From Marinicrinis sediminis (GTDB lineage: Bacteria > Bacillota > Bacilli > Paenibacillales > KCTC-33676), in the NCBI RefSeq assembly GCF_042685085.1, contig NZ_JBHUMM010000007.1:177846-241845 (forward strand): 64,000 bases of DNA, written 5' to 3'. The number at the start of each line of letters is the position of its first letter. Position 1 is the stretch's first letter. A program made the position numbers and the translations under genes. Below are positions 44,150 through 62,797 of the stretch, in pieces. The notes under the pieces are model-generated. The model was given only the letters and a program-made list of their open reading frames with translations, did not search any database and was not told where the DNA came from.

Positions 44150-45040
44150 TCAAACAGTTGTTTTGAACCAAAGTAACAAATCAAATAATGAATACACCAT
44201 TGCTTGTACAGTAAATGAGGTTGGCTGATATGCTGGATTAAGGTATGGATTATGAGCTCCGTTATCACTTGACACTTTATATACGCATTCAGAAAACACT
44301 TTAATTACTCCAGAATAATATTCAGTTTGGGTAGGTTGATGATTATTTCTCCGGTGTTTGTTTCCACCTAAATGTTTGTGAGCATCCCAAAATTTCACGT
44401 CATTATTTGGCTTGAAACAACTGTCAGGAACTATACTTTTATCTAATTTATTTATTGTCTGGAGAATTGATTCTTGAACTCTACGGATTGTTACTAAATT
44501 ACTTTTTATTTGGGATAAATCATCACTATGCATATTTTTTATTAAGTTTACTAATTCATTCTCTATCGATATATCGACATGACCTCTCTCAAAAATCTGA
44601 AATACATTAAAATACTTATTTTTTATTTTAATATTCTCAAGTTCAAGACCCTTTTGAGTAATATAATTAAATAATGCTTCGATATCTCCCGGTATTTTTT
44701 TATATAGCTTCTCCTGAGGAAACCACGTTTTCACAGTCGAGAATCCTTCTGCATCGGCTGTTAAAATTGCTCGTGGAAGTTCTTTATATTTTTCATCAAG
44801 TAATGACAAAGCTATCGTTAGAAAATCTTCACCTTCTATCGGCTGATTTGGCTCTTTCAAACACTTTATATCAAGAACAATAAGCGTTAGCTTTGATGCA
44901 ATGGATGGTAATATTACTTCCATATCTCTAAAATTGGTTTTGTGTACTATATCAATATTATGGGGGCGGGCGGATCTCTTTAGTTCTTCTGCAAATCCTA
45001 TTTTATCATCTACTAATAACACATAATTTTTAGAGGACAT
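44150..45040 (-). CDS. Response-regulator receiver (REC) domain protein with an uncharacterised ~170-aa C-terminal domain
   Basis: 296 aa. REC signature residues: VLLVDD, phospho-acceptor-like LIVLDI, AILTADA (Thr), KLYKK (Lys). No recognisable HTH. Its start abuts the stop of the upstream kinase-like gene (45040/45041). Confidence 0.55.
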   Translation of the reverse strand: MSSKNYVLLVDDKIGFAEELKRSARPHNIDIVHKTNFRDMEVILPSIASKLTLIVLDIKCLKEPNQPIEGEDFLTIALSLLDEKYKELPRAILTADAEGFSTVKTWFPQEKLYKKIPGDIEALFNYITQKGLELENIKIKNKYFNVFQIFERGHVDISIENELVNLIKNMHSDDLSQIKSNLVTIRRVQESILQTINKLDKSIVPDSCFKPNNDVKFWDAHKHLGGNKHRRNNHQPTQTEYYSGVIKVFSECVYKVSSDNGAHNPYLNPAYQPTSFTVQAMVYSLFDLLLWFKTTV

Positions 45041-47686
45041 CTACAAGTTCTCCTTTAGGGGTAAAATAAAGTGAAGTTCCATTCCACTGTCTCTTTGATT
45101 AATTTCAAGCCTGCCTGAATGTGCACCTATTACTTTGTTTATATATGCCCCACCCAAGCCCTGTCCGTTGCTTTCTCTACCTTTTTTCAAAGGTGATATA
45201 TAATCGTTTTTTGACAAATCAAATGGTCTTCCATTATTTGTGTAGATAATATTTAAAAAATCCCCGTTCTCAGTGACTTTAATTCTGATTGTATTCTTAT
45301 TTTTTTTATTATTTTTCATATCAAATGCATGCATCTCTGCATTTCTAAATAGCTGGTTAAATAGCTCACGAAAAGACACTTCATGCATGTTCAAATATAT
45401 ATTTTTCAAACAATCGACTGATATTTGATACTTGTCTTTTATCTCTCTTCTATGAATATCCACTAGTTCATTCAAAAAATCGCATAAATTCACTATTTTA
45501 AAATCACTCTTTTTTAAATCTAATTTAATAATTTTATTGGTACGATCAATATATTCCTCGAGAGTCTTTGTATATACCTCTAATCTATCAAATATACCTC
45601 TTATACTATCTCGAACAAGGCTACTCTCACTAGCAATTAATAATTCTATATCAATATCTTTAGTATTCTGTATAGGGTTTTCTACAAATTCATCTAACAT
45701 ACCTTTAGAATATAAAAATTTTCTTAAAATACTTATATTACTATGAATATAAAAAATATATGGTAATGCATTATGAGAAAGAGTACTAATTATTTCTTTT
45801 TGAGCGTCTTGTGCTGTTCTCTCTAGCTCGTTTTCTTTTTCAATACTGAAATCTCGTAGACTCTCTATCTCTATTAGGGATAACTTTTGCTCCTTTATGT
45901 ATTCCTCTTGGGACTTTAGGTCTGGAACGTTAATCACAATGTTTAAAAAATCATTTTTTTTAATTCTAGGGATGGTACCTGCTCTTAGTTTTGCTATTTG
46001 ATTTAAAACTCTCGGACTATAAAGTTGATAGTATAAATACTCAATATTAATCAACCTTACTCTGGGTACTAGTGCCAATAGGTTTTGACCTATAATTATC
46101 TCTTTTGTAGGAGAATGTTCAGTATCATAAATAGTCGGCTTTAATTTTTCTCCAAGTAATGATATAATTATTGCTTGTTTGGATAAGACTTCCTTATTTA
46201 TCAACATCCTTCTTCTTTCAATTTCATTTGTATTAATATATTTTTCTTTTATCGATTCGTTTAAGTCTCTAATTCTTACATAAGGTAATCCATGCTCATC
46301 TTCTTCTGTTTGTCTTATAAAAACATCACTTACTATCTCAAAAACATCCCTTAATTTCTTCCCTATTCCTTTTTTTAAAAGAACCTCATTTTCAATAAAA
46401 ATACTGTCATATCTATTTACATTGAGACTAAAATTGTTTTCCTGTATTTCAATTAACGAAACAACTCTTGAAGTTCCCTCTACTTCATCGTATTTCTTTA
46501 ATATTTCTGCAACTGTATCCAAACTTACATTTGACATATGTCTCTTACCATCAAAATCGGAATACCATAGGCCATTTATAAATAACACTTTGCCCGTTTT
46601 ATAAGATTCTTTATTTTTTTTCAACACTAATAATGAGAATGATTTTTTTGAAAAAGAACTTACTTTCATCGGTATTGATACTACAGCTTCTATTAAATCA
46701 TTCTCGATAATACGCCGTCTTATTTCCCTCTCATTTCCTTCACTTGCAAGAAGCCTATCATCAACAACAACAATTGCCCTACCATTTTGTTTCAAGCTCG
46801 ATATAATATGCTGTATGAATGCATAATCAGACGATTTCCGTGGTGCTAAACCATATTGAAATCTGCCATATCTGTCATGAACATACTCACTGTAGTAGTT
46901 ATCACTGCGCACTGAAAATGGAATACGGGTAATTATTTTATCGAATTGAGTTATTTGATTATCATGGATATTCCCAGGATGTAATAGTGTATCACCAAAA
47001 AAAATGTTTACATCATATTCTCCATGCATAATAAAATTCATTATGCAGATACTATGATTTTTACTGTCCTTTTCCTGTCCAAATATTGATATTCTTTTTG
47101 ATTCCACAGAGTATTCCCTTGCATTTGTAATAATTTCGGTTAAAAAACCCCCAGTACCACAAAACGGGTCATAAACTCTCTCATTTTGTTTTACATCTAG
47201 TAAATTCACAAGTAATTTTTTTATTTCATCTGGGTAAGGCCTAACTCCTAAGGAATAGAAACGTAGTCTTTGAATTAAATATTCAAAAGCAACCCCCATA
47301 TCATGATCAGAAATTTCATCTGATGAAAGTGATAGACTATCAAGGTAAGCGATTATCGCATAAATACTAGTCATGAAATTACAGTTTTCAAACTTAATTC
47401 CATGAAATAAATTATTATACTTACCTAGATATTCATCCAATTCAGAAAAAGTTTTATCTAATTCTGAAGCTACAATACGAGACTCTCTTAGGTGGGTAGC
47501 ATTATTTCTAATATGTTTCCATAATCTTTGAATATGTGGTGTATTGTCAGCAACACGTTTTAAGAAAACTAAACTCAAGACATACAAATCAAGATCATAA
47601 TTTCTTACAGAGATATCACTTCTAACGATATCAAGAATACGAGAGAGCCTATGTTTGAAGATCTCTATTTTATCATAATCATACAT
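45041..47686 (-). CDS. Fusion protein: HsdM-like N6-adenine methyltransferase-fold domain (degenerate catalytic motif) plus C-terminal histidine-kinase/GHKL ATPase domain
   Basis: 881 aa. Motif I VYDPFCGTGGFL. HsdM-like blocks (ICIMNFIMHGEY, FIQHIISSLKQNGRAIVVVDDRLL...EIRRRIIENDLIEAVVSIP). The position equivalent to NPPF reads FDKIITRIPFSV. The C-terminus has HATPase_c N/G1/G2 boxes (RNAEMHA, NNGRPF, GQGLGGAYI) and a possible H-box (ISTLSHNALPY). Confidence 0.65.
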   Translation of the reverse strand: MYDYDKIEIFKHRLSRILDIVRSDISVRNYDLDLYVLSLVFLKRVADNTPHIQRLWKHIRNNATHLRESRIVASELDKTFSELDEYLGKYNNLFHGIKFENCNFMTSIYAIIAYLDSLSLSSDEISDHDMGVAFEYLIQRLRFYSLGVRPYPDEIKKLLVNLLDVKQNERVYDPFCGTGGFLTEIITNAREYSVESKRISIFGQEKDSKNHSICIMNFIMHGEYDVNIFFGDTLLHPGNIHDNQITQFDKIITRIPFSVRSDNYYSEYVHDRYGRFQYGLAPRKSSDYAFIQHIISSLKQNGRAIVVVDDRLLASEGNEREIRRRIIENDLIEAVVSIPMKVSSFSKKSFSLLVLKKNKESYKTGKVLFINGLWYSDFDGKRHMSNVSLDTVAEILKKYDEVEGTSRVVSLIEIQENNFSLNVNRYDSIFIENEVLLKKGIGKKLRDVFEIVSDVFIRQTEEDEHGLPYVRIRDLNESIKEKYINTNEIERRRMLINKEVLSKQAIIISLLGEKLKPTIYDTEHSPTKEIIIGQNLLALVPRVRLINIEYLYYQLYSPRVLNQIAKLRAGTIPRIKKNDFLNIVINVPDLKSQEEYIKEQKLSLIEIESLRDFSIEKENELERTAQDAQKEIISTLSHNALPYIFYIHSNISILRKFLYSKGMLDEFVENPIQNTKDIDIELLIASESSLVRDSIRGIFDRLEVYTKTLEEYIDRTNKIIKLDLKKSDFKIVNLCDFLNELVDIHRREIKDKYQISVDCLKNIYLNMHEVSFRELFNQLFRNAEMHAFDMKNNKKNKNTIRIKVTENGDFLNIIYTNNGRPFDLSKNDYISPLKKGRESNGQGLGGAYINKVIGAHSGRLEINQRDSGMELHFILPLKENL

Positions 47687-47762
47687 TACTTAACCTCCAA
47701 TCTTTTATATATTTAGTAATAGAGGCTAGTTTGTAACATTTCGAAACAAACTAGCCTATAAT

Positions 47763-50700
47763 TTAGTTATGGTTAGATATTAATCCAGTCACATTATTTA
47801 AATTCTCGATTGATAAAAAAGGTACTTGCCCAAATATTAACCCACTTTCCCCTTGAAGCCTTGCAGCCAAATGTCCCTTTCCGAGTAGCTTCTCCGCACC
47901 TTTTTCCCCAAGGGAAATCTCAGAGGTTCCTACGCTCTCAACCCGCAGGATTAGTCGATTACCTAAGTTATCCCTCAATTGGACCGGTAAAACATTTGCA
48001 TCTGGCCGTTGAGCTGCAAAGATCAAATGAATTCCTGCCGCACGTGCCTTTACCCCGAGCCGCTGTACGATGGAAGAAACAGCACTCTTGTATTCATCGA
48101 CAAGCATCCATTCAGCGAATTCATCGTGTATTAAAAATATTAGGGGAAGCTTCTCAGCATCAGCCACCTTAGAATTATAATCCTTTAAGTTGTTTACTTT
48201 GAACTCTTTAAACTTAAGGTACCTATCGTTCATTTCACCGACAAGATCCTCTAGTATCTGGGTTGCTTTATTCTGGTCATCGATAATACCTTCAACAAGA
48301 TGTGGTATATCCTCAAGATGCATATAATCGACACCATATTTAGGGTCAATTAAGTAAATATGCGCCAGATTCTTGCTATTCGTTACGCAGATATCAAGTA
48401 TTAGATTTTGTAGTAAGACGGATTTTCCACTTCCGGTAGCACCCGCAATAAGTGTATGTGGAGCATGCTGAGCCCCGCCTTCGAACTCGCCACCTAAATT
48501 TAGATAGAGCAGTTCCCCATCGATTTCTTTGACACCGATAACAAAGCTCATGTTTAACCCAGATGCATTGTTTTGGACCTTCCTTACCTTCCATACATCT
48601 GCTAATGATATGCTCTGCCTATGCGGGCGTGCTAAGGAAACAATTATTTCTCCAGGCCGAGCCATGATGTTTATGACATCAAGAGCATGTGTCGTAAGAA
48701 GGATGGATCTCCTCTTATCGATATCATCAACTTTTAACTGGTCCGATCCCTTAAGCCTTATGACAACAGCATTAGGCGTCAATCGATGGCCAATTACTTT
48801 CGCCTGCAAGTTATAGCTAATCAAAGCCATTCTGAGTTTATTTACTATTTCACTAACCCACGATTGATCTTCACTGGTTTCTTCAGTACTTTGAGCATTC
48901 TGTAATATCCACGTTGCTAACTGAGCATTCGCCCAAGGAATTTCACCGCTCATTTTGACGATGGCTTCCATTCCCTCTGGGTCTACCGATTCTGTTGCTT
49001 TCCCCTTGTTCAAGGGATCAGCTCCCTCATTCTCTCCTTGAGTTTCATCTCTCACAAAGTTCAACTCAATTTGATCGTCATCGGAATTATTAGGGGTATT
49101 ACTTTGTCCCGTAGCAAGTCCATTATTGCTCGCAGCAACAAAATTAATTCTTGGAGCGGGTAATGTAGCATCGCTTAATTCCCATGGCTTACTATCATCA
49201 AGCTTCTCTCTGATTTCGATGATGGATTTTCCCTGATGATAGGCTAAGACTAATTCTCTCACAAGATCCCTAGTAAAAACTTCCTGATGAGAATTCTTAG
49301 CATTTGTAATAGGATTTCTTTCACTGTCTAAAGATGTATCGGGAAACGTTGATATAAATACATGGGAATATCCCTTAATTTCAATTGGAATTTCCCCTGC
49401 CCGAATCCCCTCTCGCAACTCTTCAACAGTGAACGGAGAATTCGGGGCTAATTCAATACCATCATTTAACATATCACTAAATCTAGATAGCCATAGGTCA
49501 CGGTCAAGTCTACCAGGATCGCCAAAAAGTGCATTATGCATTCTCGAGACGGTATCGCGCAGCTGCTTTGAAGAATTCTTTCTCGCCTCGGACACACCTT
49601 TGGCATCAACATACTTAGCTTCAGAAACAAATACTTGTAGACGCGGCTTGTTTTCAACCATTTTGGGTGCAAGCGCTAATATATCTGCGATCTGCTCTTC
49701 CTTTTGTCCAAGCCAACTTGCGTAATCATCAAGGAAAAACCACCCTACAGCCTGTTCTGTTTCCATCTCGGATTGAAGGATCATCTTACTTAGTACAACA
49801 CCTATCAATTCACCAGCAAACACACCGCGTTTCGCAGCACGAAGAACGATGTCGCCTGATATTGCATTGGCATCCTCAATATACCGCTCCGTTAGCTGCA
49901 CTAATTCCGATTCAGATAATCCCAGACCTAAAGCATTCAACCTTCTTTTGACGAGGACATGTAACAAATTTAATTGAGATTTAGACGAAACAACAACGTT
50001 TGAGCCATGGGACTTATTGTGTTGGTACTTTATCACCTTTACCCCAAGGTTCCTAAGTTGTCTACGTTCTAACAATTCATCATAGTTGACTACCCACTCG
50101 CCGAGCTTGTGTGCCTCATCAAAAATGGCCTTCACTTTGTCATTCTGGAACGAAATTTGTCTTGCTGGTAAATAAAAAGCACCTGGGTTAACGTCTTTCC
50201 CCTTAACAACTGAATAAACGGACGTTAAGTAAGCCCAACCCACAGAAGGTTGACTTGGGCATGTCAAGTACACAGTAGATTTAAGTTCGTCCTTCGCCGT
50301 CGATCTTCTTTTAGCCCACCGCGGAGGATAATGGTTAAGCAATTCTGGCATCTGCCTCACTTGAACCTCATCCCATTCAAGATTGGCTTGCCTCGAGATG
50401 ACATCTTGTAAAAATACAATATCAGCTAGTTTTCCCTCTTTGGGGTCAGTTACAGTAGCCTCATGCGCCATCACTCCTACTCGAAGGCGTGCCATAAAAT
50501 CACGGGTGACCTCACTCGCAACAAAGGAGTCGGCGTCGCTATCTGCACTCTCTATCATCTTCATATATAATTCATTCAACTTATTCGTATCACGATGCCT
50601 TAGAATCACCTGACAGCGAATTTCATCTTCAATTTCATGCATTGCTGCTAGCGAGTTTACAATTGTCTCCGGAAGTCTAGTGGAATCACAGTTGTACAAA

Positions 50701-53105
50701 ACAAGGCTTAAGTTCGTTTTTTCATGAGGTTGAAGATCCAAATAACGTTCTACCAGACTGAGAAGTTTACTACTTGCTTCTTTCGGGTCTTCATTCGTCT
50801 GCACTTCTTCTTCAGTACGTACCGGACTTTCCATTAAGGTGTAATCATTCTTAGCATCTGTAATTGAAAGAAGCACCGGTTCAAGCCCCTTATACCCTAT
50901 AGCAACTTCTGGATAGTATGGGCTTACTATTTCTTCTTTGAGATCCGTAAAGAACAAACGCTGATCGCCAAAATCAATTTGGTCCGATGTTAATAGATAG
51001 TTTATTAAACCAATGACTTGTCTCGCCTTAACTACCTTTGCCGCCATTCGCATGGGGTGCCAAGGAGTCACAATAGTCATGGGTTTATTCTTTTCTCCAT
51101 CTACCCTGACATTCCCGATATCCATAACAGGCTGGGCAATCTGGACTCTATTCATATCGCCCAAGGCATGCTCTTGGAGAACTCGTAAAAACTTATCGTA
51201 CAGCTCGCTTTGTTCAATCATTGAATCTGAACTGATTCCATCTATTAGCCAATCATTGATAGATTGTTTATATTTAGTTGAAAAATTAGCCCATGCTTCT
51301 TTTAGAGTTTCATAGTCGTTCTGAGTTAGTCTTGCATCCTCAAGCAACTTCTTCAGATTATTTAAGACTGTTTTCTGTAAATCAGTGGTTTTTGCATAGA
51401 CACCGACTAGAGACCCTCTATCTTGTCCGAATACTGCTTGGATTGTACCGACATCGCTCAATGATAATCCCTGTAGCTTACCTTTCTTACTAACAGGATT
51501 TTGTGAAACACTGGAGTAAGAGAAAGGGTTATCAGCAAGTCTCCTTAAATCATCATGAAGTTCTAGTCCAATCTCATTAGGATTACCTTGCCATACCAGT
51601 TTCACTTCATTTTTTTGCTTTGACCCCTGTAAATCAAGGTAACTAAGCTCGATATAGAATGCGATTTGAATGGCCGCTTTGGCCGTTGATGTATTCTTTT
51701 TGAAGCCTTTCTTCTGTCTAGATTCTAATACTAACTGATCGTATTTAAACAAATGGTAAGTTTCCCAGTTTACTTGCCAATTGGTTAACTTCTCAAGCCC
51801 CCTGTAAGCATTACAGAAAGCTAGCCCCACATCTTCATTTATATCCAACCAAGCTTTTTTACTAGTGGTCTTCTGAGTGCGAATCCTAAGAGTCTTCTTT
51901 CCAATGAAACTATCACATTGGGCAAATAGACGCTCTGTTGCCTCTAATAAACCAACCAAAAAGTCTGTGCATTCAATTGCCTTACCATAAACAAAACGAT
52001 CCCACTCTGCTTTAAGAGCCTTCTCTGTCTCTAGATTGTGACGGTGCTTGTCGTAAAATTCTTTATCTTCTTCCGTGGCTTCCTTTGCTTTCTTCTTTTT
52101 AAAGAGTTCATTTAAATTATCAAGATAGATAATTTCCTCATCCATTAGAGTATCTGGAAACTCGTCATCAAATAACTGCCTAGTTTTTTCTGCTAGGTTT
52201 ATTTTCATTGGCTTCAATTCAAAAAATAGAAGGTTGACTTTATCTGTTTCCCATTCTAGTTCTGAAAGATTATCCGAAGCCGTGGACCAACTCACATTGG
52301 ATTCAATGAACAATTCCATGATTGGCTGAACAGAAGGATCAATTTGACTTTTCACTTTATCGTAAGAATCCCGAATTTCATTGTTTTCAATGATTTGACG
52401 ATTCGGATGCTGCTTATATAGATAACAAGCACGTTTATTATATGCATCTGTAAAAAACTTCTTCCATTTGCTTGCATGGCCCAAAGCATTCTCTGGGATT
52501 CCATCAAAAAAATAAGAATCACGTGGAATGCGAAGTGCTGGTAGCGCCCAGCCAAGTGCTCTAACAACCGGAATACCATTCTCTGCAATTGTTTCACGCA
52601 CTTTAACAGTAAATTCACTGAACTCTTCAAGGCTGCATTCATTTGCCTCTTGCAAACCTTTTAACGCTTGCTGCCAATGTCTTTTTTGATCATCACTTAG
52701 AGGAAGATCACTACTAGCCACTTGAACCCATATATCAGGTTGACTTTTCAGATCCGCTGCACCAACCCTTGCGATATCTCTTAACGATTGTCCTTGATCA
52801 TCATTCGTGTTCGCCAGTAAGATAGCGGGCTTATCACAAGAAGCATTCCTCCAATATGTTGTCTTTTCATCAGTAACCATATCAGAAGATAGCCCGCCTC
52901 CCTCAACTAATTTCCGAGGAACCTTAATGACCATTGTGGAAACTAACGTCGTATCTTGGCTTATCGTTTTACATATATAAGTGACCTGATCCCCAGTAAG
53001 ACGATCCAATAAAAAACGGGCAATCCCCTCCTCAGACTGGCTATTCTGTAATTGCCGACGAAGATATTCAGTTGCTACCCTTCCTATTAACTCTAGTTGA
53101 TTCAT
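47763..53105 (-). CDS. Giant (~1780 aa) protein with C-terminal FtsK/HerA-like P-loop ATPase; DndH/DptH-like by size and position
   Basis: The track ORF starts at 53153. The start at 53105 (MNQLELIGR...) gives an ATGA overlap with the upstream gene. The C-terminal FtsK-like Walker A is LIAGATGSGKSVLLQNLILDIC, with Walker B LIFLIHDEFAE. The ~1300-aa N-terminal region has no recognisable motifs. Confidence 0.65.
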   Translation of the reverse strand: MNQLELIGRVATEYLRRQLQNSQSEEGIARFLLDRLTGDQVTYICKTISQDTTLVSTMVIKVPRKLVEGGGLSSDMVTDEKTTYWRNASCDKPAILLANTNDDQGQSLRDIARVGAADLKSQPDIWVQVASSDLPLSDDQKRHWQQALKGLQEANECSLEEFSEFTVKVRETIAENGIPVVRALGWALPALRIPRDSYFFDGIPENALGHASKWKKFFTDAYNKRACYLYKQHPNRQIIENNEIRDSYDKVKSQIDPSVQPIMELFIESNVSWSTASDNLSELEWETDKVNLLFFELKPMKINLAEKTRQLFDDEFPDTLMDEEIIYLDNLNELFKKKKAKEATEEDKEFYDKHRHNLETEKALKAEWDRFVYGKAIECTDFLVGLLEATERLFAQCDSFIGKKTLRIRTQKTTSKKAWLDINEDVGLAFCNAYRGLEKLTNWQVNWETYHLFKYDQLVLESRQKKGFKKNTSTAKAAIQIAFYIELSYLDLQGSKQKNEVKLVWQGNPNEIGLELHDDLRRLADNPFSYSSVSQNPVSKKGKLQGLSLSDVGTIQAVFGQDRGSLVGVYAKTTDLQKTVLNNLKKLLEDARLTQNDYETLKEAWANFSTKYKQSINDWLIDGISSDSMIEQSELYDKFLRVLQEHALGDMNRVQIAQPVMDIGNVRVDGEKNKPMTIVTPWHPMRMAAKVVKARQVIGLINYLLTSDQIDFGDQRLFFTDLKEEIVSPYYPEVAIGYKGLEPVLLSITDAKNDYTLMESPVRTEEEVQTNEDPKEASSKLLSLVERYLDLQPHEKTNLSLVLYNCDSTRLPETIVNSLAAMHEIEDEIRCQVILRHRDTNKLNELYMKMIESADSDADSFVASEVTRDFMARLRVGVMAHEATVTDPKEGKLADIVFLQDVISRQANLEWDEVQVRQMPELLNHYPPRWAKRRSTAKDELKSTVYLTCPSQPSVGWAYLTSVYSVVKGKDVNPGAFYLPARQISFQNDKVKAIFDEAHKLGEWVVNYDELLERRQLRNLGVKVIKYQHNKSHGSNVVVSSKSQLNLLHVLVKRRLNALGLGLSESELVQLTERYIEDANAISGDIVLRAAKRGVFAGELIGVVLSKMILQSEMETEQAVGWFFLDDYASWLGQKEEQIADILALAPKMVENKPRLQVFVSEAKYVDAKGVSEARKNSSKQLRDTVSRMHNALFGDPGRLDRDLWLSRFSDMLNDGIELAPNSPFTVEELREGIRAGEIPIEIKGYSHVFISTFPDTSLDSERNPITNAKNSHQEVFTRDLVRELVLAYHQGKSIIEIREKLDDSKPWELSDATLPAPRINFVAASNNGLATGQSNTPNNSDDDQIELNFVRDETQGENEGADPLNKGKATESVDPEGMEAIVKMSGEIPWANAQLATWILQNAQSTEETSEDQSWVSEIVNKLRMALISYNLQAKVIGHRLTPNAVVIRLKGSDQLKVDDIDKRRSILLTTHALDVINIMARPGEIIVSLARPHRQSISLADVWKVRKVQNNASGLNMSFVIGVKEIDGELLYLNLGGEFEGGAQHAPHTLIAGATGSGKSVLLQNLILDICVTNSKNLAHIYLIDPKYGVDYMHLEDIPHLVEGIIDDQNKATQILEDLVGEMNDRYLKFKEFKVNNLKDYNSKVADAEKLPLIFLIHDEFAEWMLVDEYKSAVSSIVQRLGVKARAAGIHLIFAAQRPDANVLPVQLRDNLGNRLILRVESVGTSEISLGEKGAEKLLGKGHLAARLQGESGLIFGQVPFLSIENLNNVTGLISNHN

Positions 53106-54646
53106 GATAAAGTTTCCTCCTGAATCCCAAAGGGATTTTCTACATATGCACATGCATCAGATAATCTACGTAGTAACCCCATACTTGCCAATCTTTGCTC
53201 AAGGCGCCTTGCATTATCTGAGAATGCTTCTAAATCTGCTCTTCCTGCCTCCGTCAATTCTAGAGCCTGTTTATCTCCTATAATAAAGCCGTATTTCTCA
53301 TATAGTTTGTCTAAGAAGTCTTGGAATTCCATTCTTTCCGGAACAACGCACAATACTAAAGATTTCAAAAGCATGTCTTGAGGAGCATAGCGAAGTCTAC
53401 GAGCGCCTCTTCTTGACGAAAGGCCAATTTCCTTTCCCCAAACACCGTGAAACTTATCTACGTGCTGCTTATGTCTATTCATTGCTGCATTAACAAACTT
53501 ATTAATTAAATCATCCGGTGAATTTGCTGATTCTGCTTCACTCTCTTTGTTATCTCTTGGCCAAGCATATTCATGTTGTAGTAATGCTATTGCCTCATGT
53601 ATGTCCGTAACTTGTTTCCATGCCTCAGTGTTAACAACCTGTCTAATATATGCCTCTACTGCTCTCCGAGACATATTGTTGTGCTCAATAAAAGATCCAG
53701 AAGAAAGATCCCTGATAATTGTCTTCTTTGGAGAAACAATTTCTAATATAAAGGTTAATTTATTCGTATCACCTAAAATGAACTTTGCTCGATTTAAACT
53801 GTACATGAGCAAATGAAGTCCGGTCATGTTCACTAGATGCGGGATGACATCGTAATTCGGAATATTACTTTTTAACAATCGCAACCAATCATCTGCAAGC
53901 AGTTTGTAGTCATTCAACTTTTGGTAAGGCAAATAAACACCTGTTCGAATAGGGGATGAGCTTAGAGCGTCTTTCGGTTCTAGTGCTGCAACTAAACGAT
54001 TAAACTTATTCAATGGATTTAAAACACTCTTCTGAAGACTTGAGATTATCTGACTTCCTTTGCCGCTTCTAGTCAACATTAAATATAACAATTCACCTGT
54101 TCTACCAAAAAACCTTCGGTCATTAGTAAAGCCATTATCTTTCACTTTAAGGTCTTCATACAAACAGTCCGGACCGTATGGAAAAATAAATTGTGAACTC
54201 CAACGTTTATTATTCTCCCCCTCTATTGTCGTTTCTCGAAGAAACTGAACTACTGACGCAAAATCAACAAAATTCGCAAATCGCCCCTCTAAATAGTTGA
54301 AGTCTGCATTGATGATACCCGCTTGTCCCTTGCCCATAACTTCGTACCACTGCAGCCAAGCTTCTTTATCATCGTATCTATACTTACTTGATATAAGTGT
54401 TAATTGTGGGTTGTTAAATAAGATGTTTCTTAGATAAAGTCTTGACTTGGGTGAATAGGCCAGTTTATTAGGTTCCGTTTCACTAAATGCCCTGCCTTCT
54501 TCAAATTCAGACTGAAGAACATTTAAAAATTCCATAAAACAAAGCCATGGTGTTTGCTCATCATACAACCTGTGCCCCCAAATAGCCTCATCAACCCACA
54601 TGTCTGCGTCAATCTTTGTCGGACGCGGAAGTCTTTCATTATTCAT
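53102..54646 (-). CDS. Hypothetical protein, DndG/DptG-like by position
   Basis: The ATG at 54646 (MNNERLPRP...) has a perfect GGAGGT RBS and an 8-nt overlap with the upstream gene. 514 aa, no obvious catalytic motif. Confidence 0.5.
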   Translation of the reverse strand: MNNERLPRPTKIDADMWVDEAIWGHRLYDEQTPWLCFMEFLNVLQSEFEEGRAFSETEPNKLAYSPKSRLYLRNILFNNPQLTLISSKYRYDDKEAWLQWYEVMGKGQAGIINADFNYLEGRFANFVDFASVVQFLRETTIEGENNKRWSSQFIFPYGPDCLYEDLKVKDNGFTNDRRFFGRTGELLYLMLTRSGKGSQIISSLQKSVLNPLNKFNRLVAALEPKDALSSSPIRTGVYLPYQKLNDYKLLADDWLRLLKSNIPNYDVIPHLVNMTGLHLLMYSLNRAKFILGDTNKLTFILEIVSPKKTIIRDLSSGSFIEHNNMSRRAVEAYIRQVVNTEAWKQVTDIHEAIALLQHEYAWPRDNKESEAESANSPDDLINKFVNAAMNRHKQHVDKFHGVWGKEIGLSSRRGARRLRYAPQDMLLKSLVLCVVPERMEFQDFLDKLYEKYGFIIGDKQALELTEAGRADLEAFSDNARRLEQRLASMGLLRRLSDACAYVENPFGIQEETLS

Positions 54647-56477
54647 CGTAGTTAACCTCCACGATTCTGTCGTCAATTAGACCATCTTGATTAAGACGAA
54701 TGATTCTAAAGGATAAATCACCTTCATCATCCGGATCTTCTTCATCTATTCTACGGCGTTTCTCTAGTTGTTTAAGGAGTTTGCTTTTAAAACCCAAGAT
54801 ATCTTCGTAACATTCCCTAGAAAAACTCCCCGGTAACGCACCCTCGGCTACCCGCGAAAGAAATTCATAGCGAACTAATTGTAGTGGCAATTCAACTGTA
54901 GTTACTGAAGTTGACAGTTTCACTTCAATTACAAGCTTGTCGTTTGCATTCATTCGTATTTGCATGCTTTCACCACGCTTTTTCGGTACAGAAATACTCT
55001 CCTCAAAAATTCTACTAACTTTAGCCTGAGAGTGACTTCCAGACGTAGCCAAGATTAATTCAGCGTTGTTCTTTGCTAGAAGTCCCGTAAAAATGCGGTT
55101 TAATCCTTGGGCAATACGCGAAGTAATTTGAGTGGCTACTTTACCATCTTTAGCAATTCTGTAAACGTTAGATAAAAATTCTCCAGCATATTGGAATGTT
55201 GTAAGATGCCAAAATTTAAGCTCATCCTCTTTTTCCCTAGGGATTACGAAAAACAGCCTTTGTCTTTGGGATCGAAGAGATTCTAAAAAGTTTTCACCAC
55301 TATCCATTAAACCCTCTAAGTATTCTTTTTGATTTGCACGAAAATTCTGATCAGCACCGTAGTATGTATCACTTAGCACAAGCTCTTCGTACAAAGGACG
55401 AAGCTCAGGGTCATCCTCACCAAAAATTAGAACGTTATCGATCGTATTGCTTGTCTCGTAACCTATTCCAAATTTACCAAGTGCAGCGAATACATCAGTA
55501 GACTCACGTCGCCTTTCCGTGAGGTTCTCACCCAAAACATTTCGGTAAATACTTGCGAAGAATGTTTTATTCTCCTCAGCTAATTTGGTAGCATCAGAAC
55601 AGGACATAAGTCGATCTTTAGCTTCTGGATGGCCAAGTAGCATATTTGATACTAATAGAAGTAATTGCCTTATTGGAAGGTGAAGACCATTTAATTCACA
55701 CAACTCCAAAAGATCAGTGACTCTTGATCGAATCAGTTGTCCATCTTTATTCCCTTCAAGACGATTTCGGTTCTCCCATATAGGACATATCTTGCCCGTT
55801 TGATCATTTTCTCTCAGAGAGCATTGATTACAATCATTCCACCCTGGATGCTGCAATACAACATCCACAATCTGAGGAAATAGTCTAGCTGCACTTATTT
55901 GACTTAAATTATATAATCTAAGATTGAATCCGCTCTTTTCTTTAATCTCAGTAACCAACAAATCTTCAATGCACTGTTTAACTAAAACAGTCTGTGAGTC
56001 AGTACCAATGTTCTTCCATGCCTCAATCAGCTGCCCGTCGTTTGCTGCAATTAAAAATACATTGTTATCATTTGGAGTAAGGACCGAGTTAACGAACTTA
56101 CTTAAAATGGCCCTCTCCTCATCCCTCAGCTCACTTAAATCTTTAATAACATATAGTTTCTTAGAATTGGGCAAATCCAATTCCTTTACCTTATCATCAC
56201 TCTGCCATACCTGTAGCGAACCGTTTAATGCTAACCAAACTTCTCTACAGTTATATGTCTTACCGTCCCCAGCCGTTCCCGTCAGTATTACAGATTTAGG
56301 ACTAGGAGATTTAAAATTTTCAAGTAGTTCCTCTAAATAAACCGAATCGACAATTATGGGTTGGATATTTTTCCGCTTTATGATTCTATGAATTGCTTCA
56401 TCATACATGTTATCGTTACGAGGAATTGGTCCATACTGTCGTAGAAAACTAATCCATTGCGATTGAACTGTAGTCAT
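54639..56477 (-). CDS. P-loop NTPase, DndF/DptF-like by position
   Basis: 612 aa. Walker A VILTGTAGDGKT. Walker-B-like LYVIKDLSE. CNQCSLRENDQTGKICP is a possible metal-binding cluster. Confidence 0.5.
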   Translation of the reverse strand: MTTVQSQWISFLRQYGPIPRNDNMYDEAIHRIIKRKNIQPIIVDSVYLEELLENFKSPSPKSVILTGTAGDGKTYNCREVWLALNGSLQVWQSDDKVKELDLPNSKKLYVIKDLSELRDEERAILSKFVNSVLTPNDNNVFLIAANDGQLIEAWKNIGTDSQTVLVKQCIEDLLVTEIKEKSGFNLRLYNLSQISAARLFPQIVDVVLQHPGWNDCNQCSLRENDQTGKICPIWENRNRLEGNKDGQLIRSRVTDLLELCELNGLHLPIRQLLLLVSNMLLGHPEAKDRLMSCSDATKLAEENKTFFASIYRNVLGENLTERRRESTDVFAALGKFGIGYETSNTIDNVLIFGEDDPELRPLYEELVLSDTYYGADQNFRANQKEYLEGLMDSGENFLESLRSQRQRLFFVIPREKEDELKFWHLTTFQYAGEFLSNVYRIAKDGKVATQITSRIAQGLNRIFTGLLAKNNAELILATSGSHSQAKVSRIFEESISVPKKRGESMQIRMNANDKLVIEVKLSTSVTTVELPLQLVRYEFLSRVAEGALPGSFSRECYEDILGFKSKLLKQLEKRRRIDEEDPDDEGDLSFRIIRLNQDGLIDDRIVEVNYDE

Positions 56478-56571
56478 TATGTACTACCACCTTTTCAGGA
56501 AATGGTCCCTCTGATTCATTCGACATCTTCCAACTATTTTCCTGTTTATTATCAATTTCAACATTTTATTG

Positions 56572-57471
56572 TTAATCAACATTAAGGAAACTATCACTAT
56601 TATTCGACAAATTAAGAATTAAGTGTGTGTATTTACTCATTACTAATTCATTATAAGCTACAGTATAAATTCTTGGGTCCGGAATACTGCACTCTACAAT
56701 ATGGTAATGGATCCCGCGGCACGAAGTTCTTATTTTTATGTATACAGGAACTATTTCAATGTTCTTTGGGACACTACTTGCAATCCCTAATACAGGATAC
56801 AGCAGCTTATGCTTAGCCAATGACTTATGACTAGTATCGCTTTTTGCTTCTAGAACAAATAACGTCTCCTTATTATTCCGTTTTTCTATAAACATAGCAT
56901 CTATTTCGACTTGACCTCTGTTGTGAATAAACACATCACTTATCGAACTATGTGGCCTAAATTCAAAGGTGTATGTCGAGTTACAACTTGCTGGTGGGAA
57001 TATCGGTTTTATATGATCTATACCAAGAGCATAACTTATTAAACCGGACGAGAATCCTAAATTAACATAAGACTTCTCAGTTAAAGATGGCAAAATAGAA
57101 AAGATCTTTAATTGCTCAACATTAACTGCAGGGACATACTCCGTTCCTACGGAATTAAAAATCATATCATCTATTAAGAAGAAATCATCGAGTTTATCCT
57201 GGACCTTTACTAATGCAAATTGAGTTCCCGAACCACCTTTCGTTTGCCCTAATCTCATTACCATTGCAGAATTACTTTTGATAGATTGATGTAATCGTTC
57301 ATACGAATCAATAGATATTGCGGCGGCCGCACCCATCTTGGGATATCCGTTACTTTTTAAGTAATCTATGAATGAAATTGGTCCAAAGGTAGCAACTGGC
57401 TTGTCCTTTATTGTGCTAAGGGCTGCTTCAAACACCTCACTGATTCCTTCCTGCTTGTCATTTTTCCTCAT
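56572..57471 (-). CDS. Hypothetical protein with a possible PD-(D/E)xK nuclease motif
   Basis: 299 aa. VEIDAMFIEKRNNKETLFVLEAKSD gives D...ExK spacing compatible with a restriction-endonuclease-like fold. Weak evidence. Confidence 0.4.
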   Translation of the reverse strand: MRKNDKQEGISEVFEAALSTIKDKPVATFGPISFIDYLKSNGYPKMGAAAAISIDSYERLHQSIKSNSAMVMRLGQTKGGSGTQFALVKVQDKLDDFFLIDDMIFNSVGTEYVPAVNVEQLKIFSILPSLTEKSYVNLGFSSGLISYALGIDHIKPIFPPASCNSTYTFEFRPHSSISDVFIHNRGQVEIDAMFIEKRNNKETLFVLEAKSDTSHKSLAKHKLLYPVLGIASSVPKNIEIVPVYIKIRTSCRGIHYHIVECSIPDPRIYTVAYNELVMSKYTHLILNLSNNSDSFLNVD

Positions 57472-57550
57472 GATTCCCCCTACTTTCTTACAAATATCTT
57501 AACAAAAACGCAAAATCGCCGGAATATCTCCGGCGAAAATGAAAGTTATT

Positions 57551-58426
57551 TTATGAAAATGAACACACACAAGGAATATCTGCATCTGCTTTGAATAAAA
57601 ACTTTTCAAAACCCTCCGCTTCCATCACTTGGCGAAACTGTTTCATCGTATAGGACCCACCGTTCTTTTTCAGAATCGAAACATCCTTTTGAAGGCTAGT
57701 CCTGAATCTCTCTTCCATCTCTTCTTGTTCACGATAACGTTCTGGCCATATTGCATATAGTAGAGCATAATGCTGGTAACCTCCACGCACACACCTTCCC
57801 GCACAGTTTGCGTGGGAAAATCCTTTAATCCCATTCCTTAAAGCAATCTGGGCATTTTCATTTCCTTCATCCGCTAGCTGTTCAGCAATATTATACATTC
57901 GAGGCAATTCAATACCCCATTCATCACGTATGATTCCCTTGGCGTCCAGATCCTCCCTGAACAAATCGATCAGTGGAAACCGAGTCTCAATTGTTTCTAA
58001 TGGAAAATGAGCATAAAAGTCCTTTAAGTTGTCAGCCCGATGCTTCTCATGAGGACCAATCCCAAAATACAAAATAGGCTCTAGGTTTCTCTCATTTCTT
58101 AATTCTTCTTCCAAAAAGATAATGGTTTGTCTCACTTTCAGCTCTTCCGAGCACTTGGCCAAACGTGCATTTCCCAGAAATCGCTCATCGTAAAACACTT
58201 CTTCAGGAGTTCTTCCATCAAGTCTTTCTGTAATTTCCAAACCAATATGATTTGAAACCTCCTCCATAAACCGGTAATTATCTTCATCTTCCCATAAAGT
58301 GTTTGTAAAAAACAAAATGCAGTTATCTTTCCCATACGTTTGCACCATATGGTAAGCAACATAAGCACTTCCAGCTCCACCGCTAAACATTGCTACATGT
58401 ACAACCTTTTTATCTTGGGTGCTCAT
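57551..58426 (-). CDS. PAPS-reductase-family PP-loop ATP pyrophosphatase (DndC/SspD/BrxP-like)
   Basis: 291 aa. PP-loop HVAMFSGGAGSAYVAY near the N-terminus. Confidence 0.7.
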   Translation of the reverse strand: MSTQDKKVVHVAMFSGGAGSAYVAYHMVQTYGKDNCILFFTNTLWEDEDNYRFMEEVSNHIGLEITERLDGRTPEEVFYDERFLGNARLAKCSEELKVRQTIIFLEEELRNERNLEPILYFGIGPHEKHRADNLKDFYAHFPLETIETRFPLIDLFREDLDAKGIIRDEWGIELPRMYNIAEQLADEGNENAQIALRNGIKGFSHANCAGRCVRGGYQHYALLYAIWPERYREQEEMEERFRTSLQKDVSILKKNGGSYTMKQFRQVMEAEGFEKFLFKADADIPCVCSFS

Positions 58427-58430
58427 CTAA

Positions 58431-61400
58431 TCACTCCGCTTTTATTACGTAATTTTCAAATAACTGATAGATAAGGTACTCGAGTTCTTGCCGAGGTACA
58501 TTCTTACCTGCCGCATTGATCATTCTTTCTAAATTTGAATAGACCGTCGCCGACTTAACAGACAGATCGACCTTATTAATCAATTTCCTGCTATTGTTCA
58601 GTTGAACTGAAACCATATTCAAGTTGTTTTGTTCAATTTCCTGTTCAGTAAGCCTTAGCTCCTCTAGATCGTGATTTAGTTGCGAAAAGAATAAATCATA
58701 AGTGGTATCAGACCAATCCTCCACTCTGACCCCTACGTATTCTTTAGCAAATTGCTCTATCCATAAATCTCCTTTCTCACTAGATAGCGAATTTTTAATT
58801 CTTTCCGACAGCTTATTAACCGAATAAGACCCGTTGGCCCGCTGTTCTTCAACCCAATTGTTTAAGTTTTTGTAATTGCTGAGTTCCATAACCTGTAACA
58901 ATTTCTCTGCTAGTTCGTTCTTTAGCAATACAGTGAAATTCTCTGCGTATTGCTTAATACCTATCAACTTATCTATATTATTTTGGTAGAGTCTTATTAG
59001 CTGTGCGACCGATTGTTGAGGATCTACCTCTGACCTTTTTATGAGATCCCTAAACTCGCCAAATTCCTTATCTACGTTAATAGAAGTTTGCGCAATCCTA
59101 GGAAGCGACCGCAGCCACTTCAATAAAGTGCCGCAAATAAATATTAGTCTAGATTGGTTGTTCAAACGCGTTTCAAGTGAATCAACAAAGCACTTCTCAA
59201 TACTATTAAAAAATTCAACATAGCTATCACTAATGTGCTCATAAGCGTACTGATAGTAATCCGCTCCAGTCTCCACTATGATTTCGAAAAGCGTAGATCC
59301 ATCTATGCCTGGAACAAACATACCATTGCGGTACAGCATAAACTCGTTCCAACGATCCCTAAGCAATGCAACAAATAGTATAGGGATCAACGGCTTCCTA
59401 ATTCCAAACGGCGGAGCCGAGCACAGCTCTACTAAATCTTTGAAATTACCCTTCGGGTTACTCTCTAAAACCTCGATTAATCTTGCTCTAAGAGCAGCAA
59501 ATGACTCGTTTAATATGTTTGAGTAGTCTAAATTATTGACATTCACATCAAGCCTGCCATTGTTTTTGAAGATAGTAGCAAACAATGCATAATCAGGACC
59601 ATTTCCTTCAATGCCAAACTGCTGTGTGCTTGGCTCCTCAATCATTTTATCAATAAGCTTAATCGCCGCATTTCTTTGCACTCTCGAAACCGTATTCCTA
59701 TTGAAGGAGTCATTCAAGATCACAGGTGTGCACTTAAACAGTTCATAGCATTTATCAGATAATTTTTCTGATACCTCAAGTTCGGAGTGCATCGTCATTT
59801 TATTGCCATCAATATACCAGGTCTTCTGATCTTCATATGAGATTATTTCGGATAGATACTGAGAGATTCTGTATCTAGTCTCATTGAATAAGACCTCTAG
59901 TTCTTCCTTAATTCCCTTATCTTCCGCAAGTAGAGCCTTGTTTCTTCTTAGTGAGTCCAAACCTAAATAATTATAAACATCTGGTATAATTTCCAGTAGA
60001 GGTTTGGAGTGTAAGAAAAATAGCTTTCTATCATATTCCTTACTCAAACTTCGTAAAATGAGATCAAGTGAATCGTATGACTCTAAATTTTCTGCTAAAA
60101 CATAATAGACTGTTAGATCAGACTGTTTATTCTCCTGAATCATTTTCCGATCCATTATTTCTTTTCCATACACAATTCTCACTTCAGAGAATCTTGTCAT
60201 TCCCTTGTCATCATTGTACCGTTCAGGAAAATAAAATTTCTTAACGAGATTATTGTGTAGAACTTCTATTTCCTTAGCTTGATCTGCTTTTATTACATGC
60301 TTTTCATGTTCTAGGCGTTCATGCATATCGACTGAACTGCCTGCAAATAACTCCCAGTAATCATTCACTCTATTAAACCTAATTACTTTATGTTTGCTGA
60401 GTACAGGTAAAATATCTGAGAGTTCATCTTCTGTAATTTGTGTTGCAAACCGTAAGAAATCTGAATTAAGCTTCTGTTCGTTTTGTACCGAGCACAAGTT
60501 CCAAAGAGTTATGAACTTCACTAGGTTCGTTGCCGACTGGTTATTTAGAAGTTCCTCAGGAAAACGGGCCATTGCTTTTTTATATAAAAGGATATGTTCG
60601 GATACATCATCATTCCCAAAATCATTCGAGTAGGAAAAGAAAAAATCAAACAGCTGGTAGCCTAAATAATATTCGTTACATTTGCTTATATGATTTAACA
60701 ACCCACCCGTTTCTTGACTTTCTAGAAAAGTAAATAACGTTCTCTCATTTTGTCCAAACACTCGGGTTAGATGTGGCAGAAGGAAAATCGAAACCGGATG
60801 AAGCGGGTACATACCTCGAACTACCAACTCATCTCGTTCCGTCTGATTGATACTCGGAAAGAGCGGGTACTTTCTCAGCATTTTACGTGTTGTAGAGAAA
60901 GCTACCTCACTAATAATTGGCTTCTGGTCAATATTCTCTGTAAGAATTAACTCCGAGATTCTGAGAAAGGTCGCTTGATCACTTTTCACCAAGTATTGAT
61001 TAAACCTCTTCTCAATACGTTGAAATTCCCTAGCTATCTCTTCATTCGAAGCATTAAAATAGGAACGCAAACTTCTATGGGTAATTAACAATAAGTGTAT
61101 TGAACTCATTCTGTTTGCAAGTTCCGCAAGATCTTGCATATCTTGCATAGCCTCATTAAATTCATTCGCATTCAGGCCCTGCAAAAACCTAGCAAATTCA
61201 TCATACACGATAAATATCCCCAAGTTGTTATCTTGTAGGATTGCTGCCAGATATTCCATCTGTGATAAAAAACTATAGTCATAATCAATATCAAACGATG
61301 CACCAGCGGTCATAAGGGGGTAGATTTCCGAAAAATACTTTATCTCGGTTTCATTCTGCTTTTTAATTTCTTCAACCCACCGCTTCAGCTCTTTTCCATC

Positions 61401-61907: not shown

Positions 61908-61909
61908 CT

Positions 61910-62797
61910 TTAGTAGGTCATCCTTTCAAAAAACTCGCCTTTTATATAATCAATAGATGAAACCATCGGCAATCTAATATAGTCTAAATTATTTGTTCTA
62001 ATATACTCAATCGGGTACTTGTCATGGGTCGTTAGAATATTTAAGGCTTCGACAACCTTATTTCGAGTTAAATTAAATATTCTTCCCCATAGATTTTCTG
62101 CATTCACAATCTCATCGACACCAATAAGTCGATCCTCTGATATCTGGTCATAATCGAGTAGAACGTAATAAAGAGCCGGGATACCTATCGTAGAGATTTT
62201 AGAAGCCACTTTTCTGATTGTGTCATCCCGTTCTCCCGAATGTTCACTTTTCATTAATGATAATCTTGAAAAAGGACAGAATAAAACGTCTTCCGGATCA
62301 TTCACATCAGGTACCTTCGTATAAAATTGAATCAAACAATCAATGTCTCTTTTGAGAGAATTCTTCGATACTGCTTTCGCTTCATTTTGGCTTACCCAAG
62401 TGATAAATGAATTGAATAAATCGCGTTTACCAACTATCGTTTCTCTATATTTATTAAAGTACCAATCGAAAACAGTCGAAAGATCATTCCCATTTCTTAC
62501 CAAATGGTAGTGAAGTATGGACAGTGATTCATTCCTTTGAAGGAGTCGATCACTCTCGAACAAAATATCTCCTATTTCAGATAACGCATGTACACGCTGA
62601 CCATCTTCTGTTCTTTCTTCAAGTACGTTGAAAGCAAGTAACCAATATTTTAAGGACTCAAGCATGTTTTTGCCCAAGCCAACTGTTTCAAAAGCATATT
62701 CATCAAAAAAGAATCTTTTATCTTGCTTTACTGCCCTTAACCCCTTACTAAACCATTTATCTCTTATATAAAAGCTTTGATGTCTAGCATAGGCCAT
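61910..62797 (-). CDS. DUF4007-like protein (SspB-like candidate, DNA-phosphorothioation-associated family)
   Basis: 295 aa. The N-terminus MAYARHQSFYIRDKWFSKGL matches the ARHE(S/T)F..R.GWL.KG opening recalled for DUF4007 proteins. It is tightly coupled (2-nt gap) to the large ATPase gene. Confidence 0.55.
   Translation of the reverse strand: MAYARHQSFYIRDKWFSKGLRAVKQDKRFFFDEYAFETVGLGKNMLESLKYWLLAFNVLEERTEDGQRVHALSEIGDILFESDRLLQRNESLSILHYHLVRNGNDLSTVFDWYFNKYRETIVGKRDLFNSFITWVSQNEAKAVSKNSLKRDIDCLIQFYTKVPDVNDPEDVLFCPFSRLSLMKSEHSGERDDTIRKVASKISTIGIPALYYVLLDYDQISEDRLIGVDEIVNAENLWGRIFNLTRNKVVEALNILTTHDKYPIEYIRTNNLDYIRLPMVSSIDYIKGEFFERMTY

Follow-up and report, generated by a model that had tools for sequence, protein, structure and literature searches.

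Our analysis of a 64,000-nucleotide (nt) stretch of the genome of Marinicrinis sediminis, a member of the Paenibacillaceae (assembly GCF_042685085.1, contig NZ_JBHUMM010000007.1, positions 177,846-241,845 of the forward strand; hereafter the window), identifies two adjoining genes in a defence island that may form a self-contained His-Asp phosphorelay, in which a pseudo-methylase derived from a Type I restriction-modification (R-M) system would act as sensor and a phosphorylation-activated ribonuclease (RNase) as effector. We assign a probability of about 0.5 to this reading of the pair as an anti-phage or anti-foreign-DNA module. The sensor kinase gene (45041..47686, minus strand) encodes an 881-aa protein in which the open reading frame (ORF) list, Pfam, PADLOC and NCBIfam together define an HsdM-like pseudo-methyltransferase, one target-recognition domain (TRD), a dimerisation and histidine-phosphotransfer (DHp) region and a HATPase_c domain. 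The response-regulator gene (44150..45040, minus strand), delimited by the ORF list and by homologue searches, encodes 296 aa comprising a receiver (REC) domain and a divergent HEPN domain. As described in an earlier reading of the sequence (the original prediction), the second gene starts at the nucleotide adjacent to the first: the TAG stop codon of the kinase gene directly abuts the ATG of its partner with 0 bases between them, and the partner's AGGAG ribosome-binding site (45050..45054, minus strand) lies inside the 3' end of the kinase gene, 9 nt before the ATG, which implies translational coupling of the two genes. NCBI entries from M. sediminis match both proteins with 100% identity. 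Neither a methyltransferase-TRD-kinase fusion nor a receiver-HEPN protein is described in Pfam, NCBIfam, PADLOC v2 or the full-text literature searched, in agreement with the original view that the arrangement was undescribed; the DefensePredictor paper names HATPase and REC in a figure legend, and its text contains no description of this system.

The sensor half of the 881-aa protein is built on an N6_Mtase-fold domain (aa 127-428; 46403..47308, minus strand; Pfam PF02384, E=9e-63), and the motif strings first picked out in the protein (FCGTGG, MNFIMHGE, FIQHII, GRAIVVVDD, EIRRRIIENDLIEAVVSIP and SHNALPY) are all present in the translations. Motif I, YDPFCGTGGF (aa 172-181; 47144..47173, minus strand), is a near-canonical glycine loop of the S-adenosylmethionine (SAM) pocket that aligns with YDPACGTGGM of genuine HsdM proteins. 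N6-adenine methyl transfer requires the Asn or Asp and the aromatic residue of the motif IV tetrad, (N/D)PP(F/Y), and here that tetrad has degenerated to R254-I-P-F257 (46916..46927, minus strand). In two independent MAFFT alignments of the 881-aa protein with 20 relatives and six genuine HsdMs as controls, RIPF stands column for column under the NPPF of all six controls, and no other (N/D)PP(F/Y) occurs in the domain; the original placement of the tetrad therefore held, and an intact motif IV elsewhere was ruled out. Because NPPF has become RIPF, the sensor is expected to be unable to methylate. Of the 19 relatives in which the region is present, 18 have lost the NPPF tetrad: sequences of the window's clade show [R/Q/A/H/L/E][I/V/L]P[F/L/T/V], with the second Pro always gone and the aromatic residue often gone, and a distant clade reads [D/E]LP[L/W]. 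The unconstrained first position in the window's clade is the signature of a dead catalytic site. The exception, an outlier designated P0088, keeps NPPF and also has a receiver-HEPN neighbour (loci L020, at 104-3977, and L021), which suggests descent of the family from an active methylase-kinase fusion; P0088 may represent this ancestral, catalytically active form. In the alignment of relatives most members keep the GxG of motif I and all keep the acid of motif II (GQE, aa 204-206), so that a SAM or adenosine pocket may survive; one relative, in locus L002, lacks the glycine loop of motif I as well (FGVNH). Pfam finds no HsdM_N domain (PF12161) in the 881-aa protein, whereas the true HsdMs encoded beside the pair in L003, L004 and L007 have it.

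The methylase domain is followed by a single HsdS-type TRD (aa 443-596; 45899..46360, minus strand; Pfam Methylase_S, E=1.6e-6; PADLOC Specificity_I, E=1e-11), of which the original prediction made no mention. PADLOC assigns the 881-aa protein matches to both Type I methyltransferases and specificity subunits, and a custom hidden Markov model (HMM) of the TRD matches every relative. The protein contains one Methylase_S stretch only, against the two TRDs and conserved helices of HsdS, and such a half-S arrangement would need dimerisation. Judged from its sequence, the sensor part mimics a whole M+S unit.

The kinase half begins with a helical DHp region (about aa 600-725, with approximate boundaries; 45512..45889, minus strand), placed by the family alignment and carrying the putative phospho-acceptor His638 (codon 45773-45775) in the motif SHNALP. 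This His is invariant in 20 relatives, where the close clade has it within SHNxLP and the distant clade within VHELRP or THQLR, and that of P0088 (LHDLRN) aligns in alignment A2 only. The HATPase_c catalytic domain (aa 772-878; 45053..45373, minus strand), located by Pfam and alignments, scores 25.5 bits (E=1.9e-5) against a Pfam gathering score of 26.4 in the window protein and 27.0-35.7 bits, above the gathering score, in nine relatives. The best NCBIfam family matches are EnvZ, PhoR and heavy-metal sensor kinases, the EnvZ and PhoR models aligning to aa 692-878, and a phmmer search of the kinase part against the PDB gave marginal kinase matches only. The N box (NAExH; NAEMH in the window) and the G2 box (GxG[LI]GG; GQGLGG in the window) are invariant across the family. 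The G1 box reads T-N-N-G-R-P-F against the canonical DxGxG, with Asn817 opposite the Asp of ZraS and Pro for the second Gly; this NNG variant (N817-N818-G819, 45230-45238) is invariant in 21 relatives. The original description of a bona fide HATPase_c with N, G1 and G2 boxes and an H-box-like SHNALPY was thus right about the H box, N box and G2 box and wrong about G1.

The partner protein opens with a receiver domain (aa 1-116; 44693..45040, minus strand) identified by fold and by residues: it has the flavodoxin-like (beta-alpha)5 fold and carries D11, D12, the phospho-acceptor Asp57 (codon 44870-44872), T94 and K115. A profile search of 1.84 billion cluster representatives recovered 593 clusters (at 50% identity) of the partner family at E<=1e-10, and residues were counted in 139 full-length representatives; a separate search gave 11 close homologues of the window protein. 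The phospho-acceptor site is conserved in 98-100% of these (D/E11 in 137 of the 139, D12 in 136, D57 in 137, and T/S94 and K115 in all 139), as the earlier assignment of a canonical receiver would lead one to expect. Pfam Response_reg does not match the window partner at E<=10 and matches three of 16 diverse relatives weakly (best E=0.011). Pfam and PADLOC scans of these 16 partners returned only weak Response_reg and DUF4145 matches, the latter, to a HEPN family, in one relative, and the partner family is unnamed by Pfam, NCBIfam and PADLOC v2. Five relatives of about 345-352 aa (P0199, P0211, P0218, P0225 and P0268) share the same HEPN domain and have at their N-terminus a longer, different receiver-like domain (VEDD...IIDRNL...LTAN) with a large insertion.

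The output domain (aa 144-296; 44153..44611, minus strand) was first taken for an uncharacterised, novel domain without a helix-turn-helix (HTH). It indeed has no HTH, and its supposed novelty gives way to a divergent HEPN fold in the predicted structure. The model of this domain (pLDDT 94) has the four-helix up-down bundle in which an insert separates helices 2 and 3, and its fold matches are HEPN proteins: RnlA (8.7), the sacsin HEPN domain (8.7), LsoA (8.6), the HepN toxin SO_3166 (8.5), Csm6 (8.1) and MNT-associated HEPN toxins (8.0-7.8). A profile of the domain searched against PDB sequences returned noise only (best E=0.15). We mapped conserved residues onto the model helices and compared them with the rules of Anantharaman et al. 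2013 (PMC3710099). His263 (120 of 139 representatives; codon 44252-44254) falls at the end of helix 3, in S258-D-N-G-A-H263; position 190 in helix 2 (aa 175-199) is acidic in 136 (Glu in 127, Asp in nine); and Arg186 (136 of 139; codon 44483-44485) lies one turn before Glu190. The near-invariance of His263, Glu190 and Arg186 suggests catalysis, and some HEPN families are known to keep the His, lose the canonical Arg and carry compensating basic residues elsewhere (PMC3710099). In our reading the output domain is a divergent and probably catalytic HEPN with a rearranged active site. In the L020 locus the partner (408 aa) has an extra C-terminal tail of about 85 aa with no family match; its resemblance to an OB or cold-shock fold was an appearance by eye only, without Pfam support, and we make no claim for it.

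The two proteins belong together well beyond this genome. We searched HMMs of the methylase, recognition, kinase and partner parts against every ORF in the window and in 19 fetched loci; wherever the contig allowed, each partner gene had the three-part fusion directly before it, abutting or overlapping. With the loci fetched for P0088 and P0008 (L020-L022) added to the window and L001-L019, the pair is intact in every one of the 23 loci, of which about 20 are distinct. They come from Bacillota, Bacteroidota, Ignavibacteria and Vulcanimicrobiota, and the sources with a name are Marinicrinis, Paenibacillus macquariensis subsp. defensor, Anaeromicrobium, an Ignavibacteria metagenome-assembled genome (MAG), a Vulcanimicrobiota MAG and Pedobacter superstes. 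A contig pattern scan with alignment A1 yielded four genome loci and 11 metagenome loci only, and a word-indexed homologue search with the C-terminal 451 aa of the kinase yielded one match only. In two loci the receiver is fused to a Schlafen/AlbA_2 domain rather than to HEPN (L008, 9971-10903, Pedobacter; L022, 2903-3841, a metagenome contig), which we read as effector swapping between HEPN and Schlafen/AlbA_2 within the partner family.

The pair often stands beside restriction and defence genes. hsdM, hsdS and hsdR flank it in eight of the 13 distinct loci whose flanks are long enough to be informative (L002, L003/L007, L004, L008, L012, L013, L014 and L015), and in five of these eight the pair lies directly upstream of the hsd genes in the same orientation; in L007, not a single base separates the partner's stop codon from hsdM. 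Other neighbours are McrBC, Mrr and a PLD nuclease (L001), GmrSD (L002) and, in the window, the phosphorothioate-based Ssp system. A Type I R-M operon, not Ssp, is what most often lies beside the pair. Taken together, the core of the original prediction (a methylase fold without its catalytic tetrad joined to a histidine kinase, with a receiver partner of non-DNA-binding output, in a defence island) is supported and generalises across relatives. The Type I R-M operon downstream of the pair in L003 (5108-14210) and L007 (10898-20000) contains two tandem hsdM paralogues and, before hsdS, a 658-aa AAA_15/AAA_21 ABC-type ATPase at the position that PrrC occupies in EcoprrI-type operons. In L005 (83-6999), a Tn7-like TnsD/TniQ gene stands ahead of genes for a KAP NTPase, an unannotated protein, a QueC-like protein and a TatD DNase. 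These resemble QatABCD and lie immediately upstream of the pair, and the arrangement suggests that a Tn7-like element carries the pair in this locus.

These observations lead us to propose the following mechanism. The HsdM-like domain and its single HsdS-type TRD, a methylation-dead copy of the Type I methylase core, would form the sensor input, and the helix after the TRD would run into the DHp helix that carries His638, so that a ligand bound in the M+S-like groove of a presumed homodimer could signal straight to the kinase. Phosphorylated His638 would then pass its phosphoryl group to Asp57 of the translationally coupled partner, receiver phosphorylation would drive dimerisation and bring two HEPN domains together, and the HEPN pair would be switched on as a metal-independent RNase acting through His263, Glu190 and Arg186, with the outcome that translation is stopped or phage transcripts are destroyed. 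Candidate triggers would be foreign or unmodified DNA, DNA-mimic anti-restriction proteins and SAM depletion. The conserved TRD, the retained SAM-pocket motifs and the linkage to hsdMSR would suit a module that senses SAM or that serves anti-restriction factors as a decoy, and the N-terminal HARE-HTH DNA-binding domain found in the kinases of some relatives, including those of L008 and L022, fits DNA as the trigger. By analogy with PrrC, the pair would probably serve restriction systems as a second line of defence or as a guard. More tentatively, and with clearly less confidence than in the phosphorelay itself, we consider that the family may be a widespread anti-phage guard, in which a dead replica of the Type I methylase-specificity unit serves as bait for phage anti-restriction (DNA mimics or SAM destruction) or for unmodified DNA and relays the signal to the rearranged HEPN RNase.

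Several observations weigh against this interpretation. On the input side, the TRD is conserved above the methyltransferase domain (58% versus 39% identity to L001, and 83% versus 74% to P0002), the reverse of genuine, diversifying specificity subunits and of the HsdS-like hypervariability that had been expected, which argues against sequence-specific DNA sensing. In the kinase, an invariant Asn replaces the adenine-contacting Asp of GHKL ATPases and the second Gly of G1 is missing, so that ATP binding and kinase activity are not assured; in addition, the residue after the phospho-acceptor His is Asn in the window's clade, where it is usually Glu or Asp. On the output side, the Arg of the HEPN signature Rx4-6H is absent, position 258 being Ser, Gly or Cys and never Arg among the 139 representatives. 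The top Foldseek matches of the domain are the HEPN proteins named above and are non-significant (best E=1.3), four-helix bundles being promiscuous in such comparisons, and HEPN domains without catalysis are known, such as MtlR (PMC3710099) and sacsin. Finally, the loci were retrieved by similarity to the window's clade and only 13 of them are informative for context, so that the association with Type I R-M does not amount to a statistical test, and no relatives were found on plasmids (by tblastn) or on viral contigs.

Of the alternative explanations, the one that survives best, though we judge it unlikely, is a regulatory two-component system in which the pseudo-methylase reads host DNA methylation or SAM supply and the phosphorylated REC-HEPN protein tunes the neighbouring restriction system, in alleviation or establishment control, through non-lethal binding of RNA, DNA or protein. 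The pair stands in one operon-like string with hsdM-hsdS-hsdR in L002, L003/L007, L004 and L012, and the kept SAM-pocket motifs, the conserved rather than hypervariable TRD and a HEPN domain that lacks its canonical Arg, with non-catalytic HEPN regulators such as MtlR as precedent, would all suit such a role. Yet the pair occurs without any Type I system in the window, which has Ssp, and in L001, L005 and L006; its base composition is unlike that of its neighbours; neither protein of the window's clade has an HTH; the output is exchangeable with Schlafen/AlbA_2, as befits an effector; and the near-invariant HEPN residues point to catalysis.

A second alternative, a special case of the defensive phosphorelay that we consider less probable still, holds that the dead M+S-like module mimics the DNA groove of a Type I methylase and is triggered by phage anti-restriction factors such as Ocr, ArdA or SAM-degrading enzymes, and not by DNA. 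It would explain why the pair sits in or beside hsdMSR in eight of 13 informative loci, why the TRD is conserved instead of diversifying and why the SAM-pocket motifs outlive the loss of catalysis, and it has a precedent in PrrC, whose release follows the inhibition of its Type Ic R-M partner by T4 Stp (PMC3710099). The idea is inferential throughout, and against it stand the HARE-HTH N-termini of some relatives, which point to DNA as the ligand, and the intact NPPF of another.

It is very unlikely that the C-terminus is a GHKL ATPase clamp of the MORC/MutL kind, as in some R-M systems, and the partner a pseudo-receiver, with no phosphorelay between them. The G1 box without its canonical Asp and second Gly, the score of the window protein below the Pfam HATPase_c threshold and a weak match of relatives to HATPase_c_5 ("GHKL domain") would fit a clamp, but the helical segment that precedes the ATPase bears an invariant His within an H-box-like motif (VHELRP in the distant clade), the best family matches are the sensor kinases EnvZ, PhoR and their heavy-metal counterparts, and all five receiver-site residues are kept in at least 98% of the 139 representatives, which is atypical of pseudo-receivers. 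Most improbable of all is that the 881-aa protein has kept DNA methyltransferase activity with its unorthodox motif IV, the kinase part doing no more than regulate it: the strong N6_Mtase similarity, the intact motifs I and II, the acidic first residue and third-position Pro kept by the distant clade and the NPPF of P0088 speak for it, but the unconstrained first position, the ever-missing second Pro and often-missing aromatic residue, the FGVNH of L002 and an NCBIfam hsdM equivalog (TIGR00497) score of 104.6 bits against a cut-off of 242.75 speak against it, as does the general need for the Asn or Asp and the aromatic residue of the tetrad, METTL14 (EPPL) being a known inactive methyltransferase.

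Our preferred reading, a phosphorelay that serves defence, also accords with the position of the pair in the window, where the expectation of a defence-island setting proved justified. Directly upstream of the kinase gene on the same strand lie sspB, sspC, an sspD-like gene, a DUF6997 gene, sspF, sspG and sspH (47763..62797, minus strand; PADLOC, with E values down to 0, and Pfam), which are context outside the pair. The Ssp set looks complete, with SspB, SspC and the SspD-like protein, a PAPS-reductase, on one side and SspF, SspG and SspH on the other; the DUF6997 gene (56572-57471) lies between these modification and restriction halves, and no sspA-like gene was seen before the window's end. 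In the 76-nt gap 3' of sspH, between its stop codon (47763-47765) and the GGAGG ribosome-binding site of the kinase gene, a perfect 12-bp hairpin (GGCUAGUUUGUU...ACAAACUAGCC; 47724..47756, minus strand; RNA fold -18.8 kcal/mol, z=-3.05) marks the junction of Ssp and the pair; it has no U-tract and may function as terminator, processing site or operator. The GC content of the pair is 24-33%, that of the Ssp genes 39-44% and that of the window's left third about 50%, and it jumps from 29% to 44% at 47.8 kb. Because of this sharp step and the hairpin in the gap, we regard the pair as a separate module that landed beside Ssp and not as an Ssp component. The next ORF downstream of the pair encodes a 2-hydroxyacid dehydrogenase, so that the pair here consists of two genes only.

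At the edge of the low-GC region lies the tmRNA gene (ssrA; 63583..63946, minus strand), with the tag peptide GKQQTNYALAA. tmRNA genes are classical attachment sites for islands, and this one is probably the attachment site of the whole island, comprising Ssp and the kinase-receiver pair. Near the inner border of the island, a 102-aa ORF (41830-42138, minus strand) matches only the C-terminal third of the tRNA adenosine deaminase TadA and looks like a gene remnant. Three consecutive ORFs of 309, 315 and 283 aa (37981-40860, plus strand) lie in the stretch of lowest GC outside the pair (about 34%) and have no family assignment, except for a weak 3D domain match in the first. A second defence-like cluster in the window (15862-20349, minus strand) comprises genes for a NUDIX hydrolase (15862-16266), a 1051-aa protein with PLD-nuclease, SF2 helicase and DUF3427 domains (16279-19434) and an HNH endonuclease (19471-20349), all on the minus strand.

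If the phosphorelay reading is correct, the pair would be a second, mechanistically distinct case, after the defence system Detocs, of two-component signalling recruited for immunity, and the response-regulator repertoire would gain HEPN as a new output and, as a new input, a pseudo-methyltransferase that binds nucleic acid or SAM. The narrower reading as a bait and guard would, if true, make it the first restriction-enzyme pseudo-enzyme used as a two-component input and the first receiver-controlled HEPN nuclease. Under the phosphorelay reading a sizeable part of "dark" defence-island content would be explained, as the 593 partner clusters are without Pfam, NCBIfam or PADLOC annotation. The habitual association with hsdMSR makes a role as back-up for phage-disabled restriction systems directly testable, and synthetic biology could gain a useful part in a kinase that responds to DNA or a ligand by switching on an RNase.

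Among known systems, MADS (methylation-associated defence system), which has an eight-gene locus, can be set aside: the MAD2 equivalog (NF047738) scores 57.9 bits against a cut-off of 720, and the weak PADLOC matches (methylase domain to mad2, SspH to mad8, SspG to mad7) are accounted for by shared N6_Mtase and FtsK-like folds. METTL14, the subunit of the eukaryotic RNA m6A writer that has lost its catalytic tetrad and serves as a scaffold for nucleic-acid recognition, offers an analogy only; it keeps the acid and loses the aromatic residue, as the [D/E]LPL members of our family do, and has no kinase and no role in defence. The Type I R-M core (HsdM2 HsdS1) is closer, with the same N6_Mtase fold and its motifs I and II, a Methylase_S TRD followed by a long helix, and a frequent common position in the hsdMSR operon. 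The kinase protein differs in joining M and one TRD in a single chain, in its destroyed motif IV, its undetected HsdM_N, its TRD that is not hypervariable and its histidine-kinase C-terminus.

On the output side, the proposed activation resembles that of RNase L and Ire1, whose kinase-extension nuclease (KEN) is a HEPN domain (PMC3710099), and that of Csm6 and Csx1 (CARF-HEPN), in which dimerisation of a signalling domain assembles the HEPN RNase site. Those systems use protein kinase, pseudokinase or CARF signalling domains and have neither a receiver nor a separate sensor kinase. The anticodon nucleases PrrC and RloC are likewise latent HEPN RNases, coupled to Type I R-M systems for which they form a second line of defence, and PrrC, embedded in hsdMSR, fires when phage T4 disables the R-M system (PMC3710099). 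Both are controlled through an N-terminal ABC ATPase and by touching the R-M complex directly, and they keep Rx4-6H, whereas in our pair the proposed control is His-Asp phosphotransfer and the Arg has moved to another helix.

The closest counterpart in design is Detocs (DtcA kinase, DtcB buffer receiver and DtcC receiver-PNP), which like the pair couples a cytoplasmic histidine kinase to a receiver-effector for defence and not to a transcription switch, and in which defence is lost when either the kinase His or the receiver Asp is mutated and effector domains can be exchanged (bioRxiv 10.1101/2023.01.24.525353), as they can among relatives of the pair. PADLOC v2 gave no match of any kind for the partner at E<=0.01, and no Detocs model is among the best 25 of the 31 kinase matches. 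Detocs senses through TPR repeats, relies in most cases on an ATP-nucleosidase effector and has a third gene, whose product is a stand-alone receiver acting as a buffer against leaky signalling; the pair has a dead methylase and a TRD as its sensor, no buffer gene that we could see, and HEPN or AlbA_2 as its effector. What is new in the pair is thus the class of sensor and the output of the receiver, and what is of a known kind is the defensive two-component system, joined to a HEPN back-up linked to restriction-modification.

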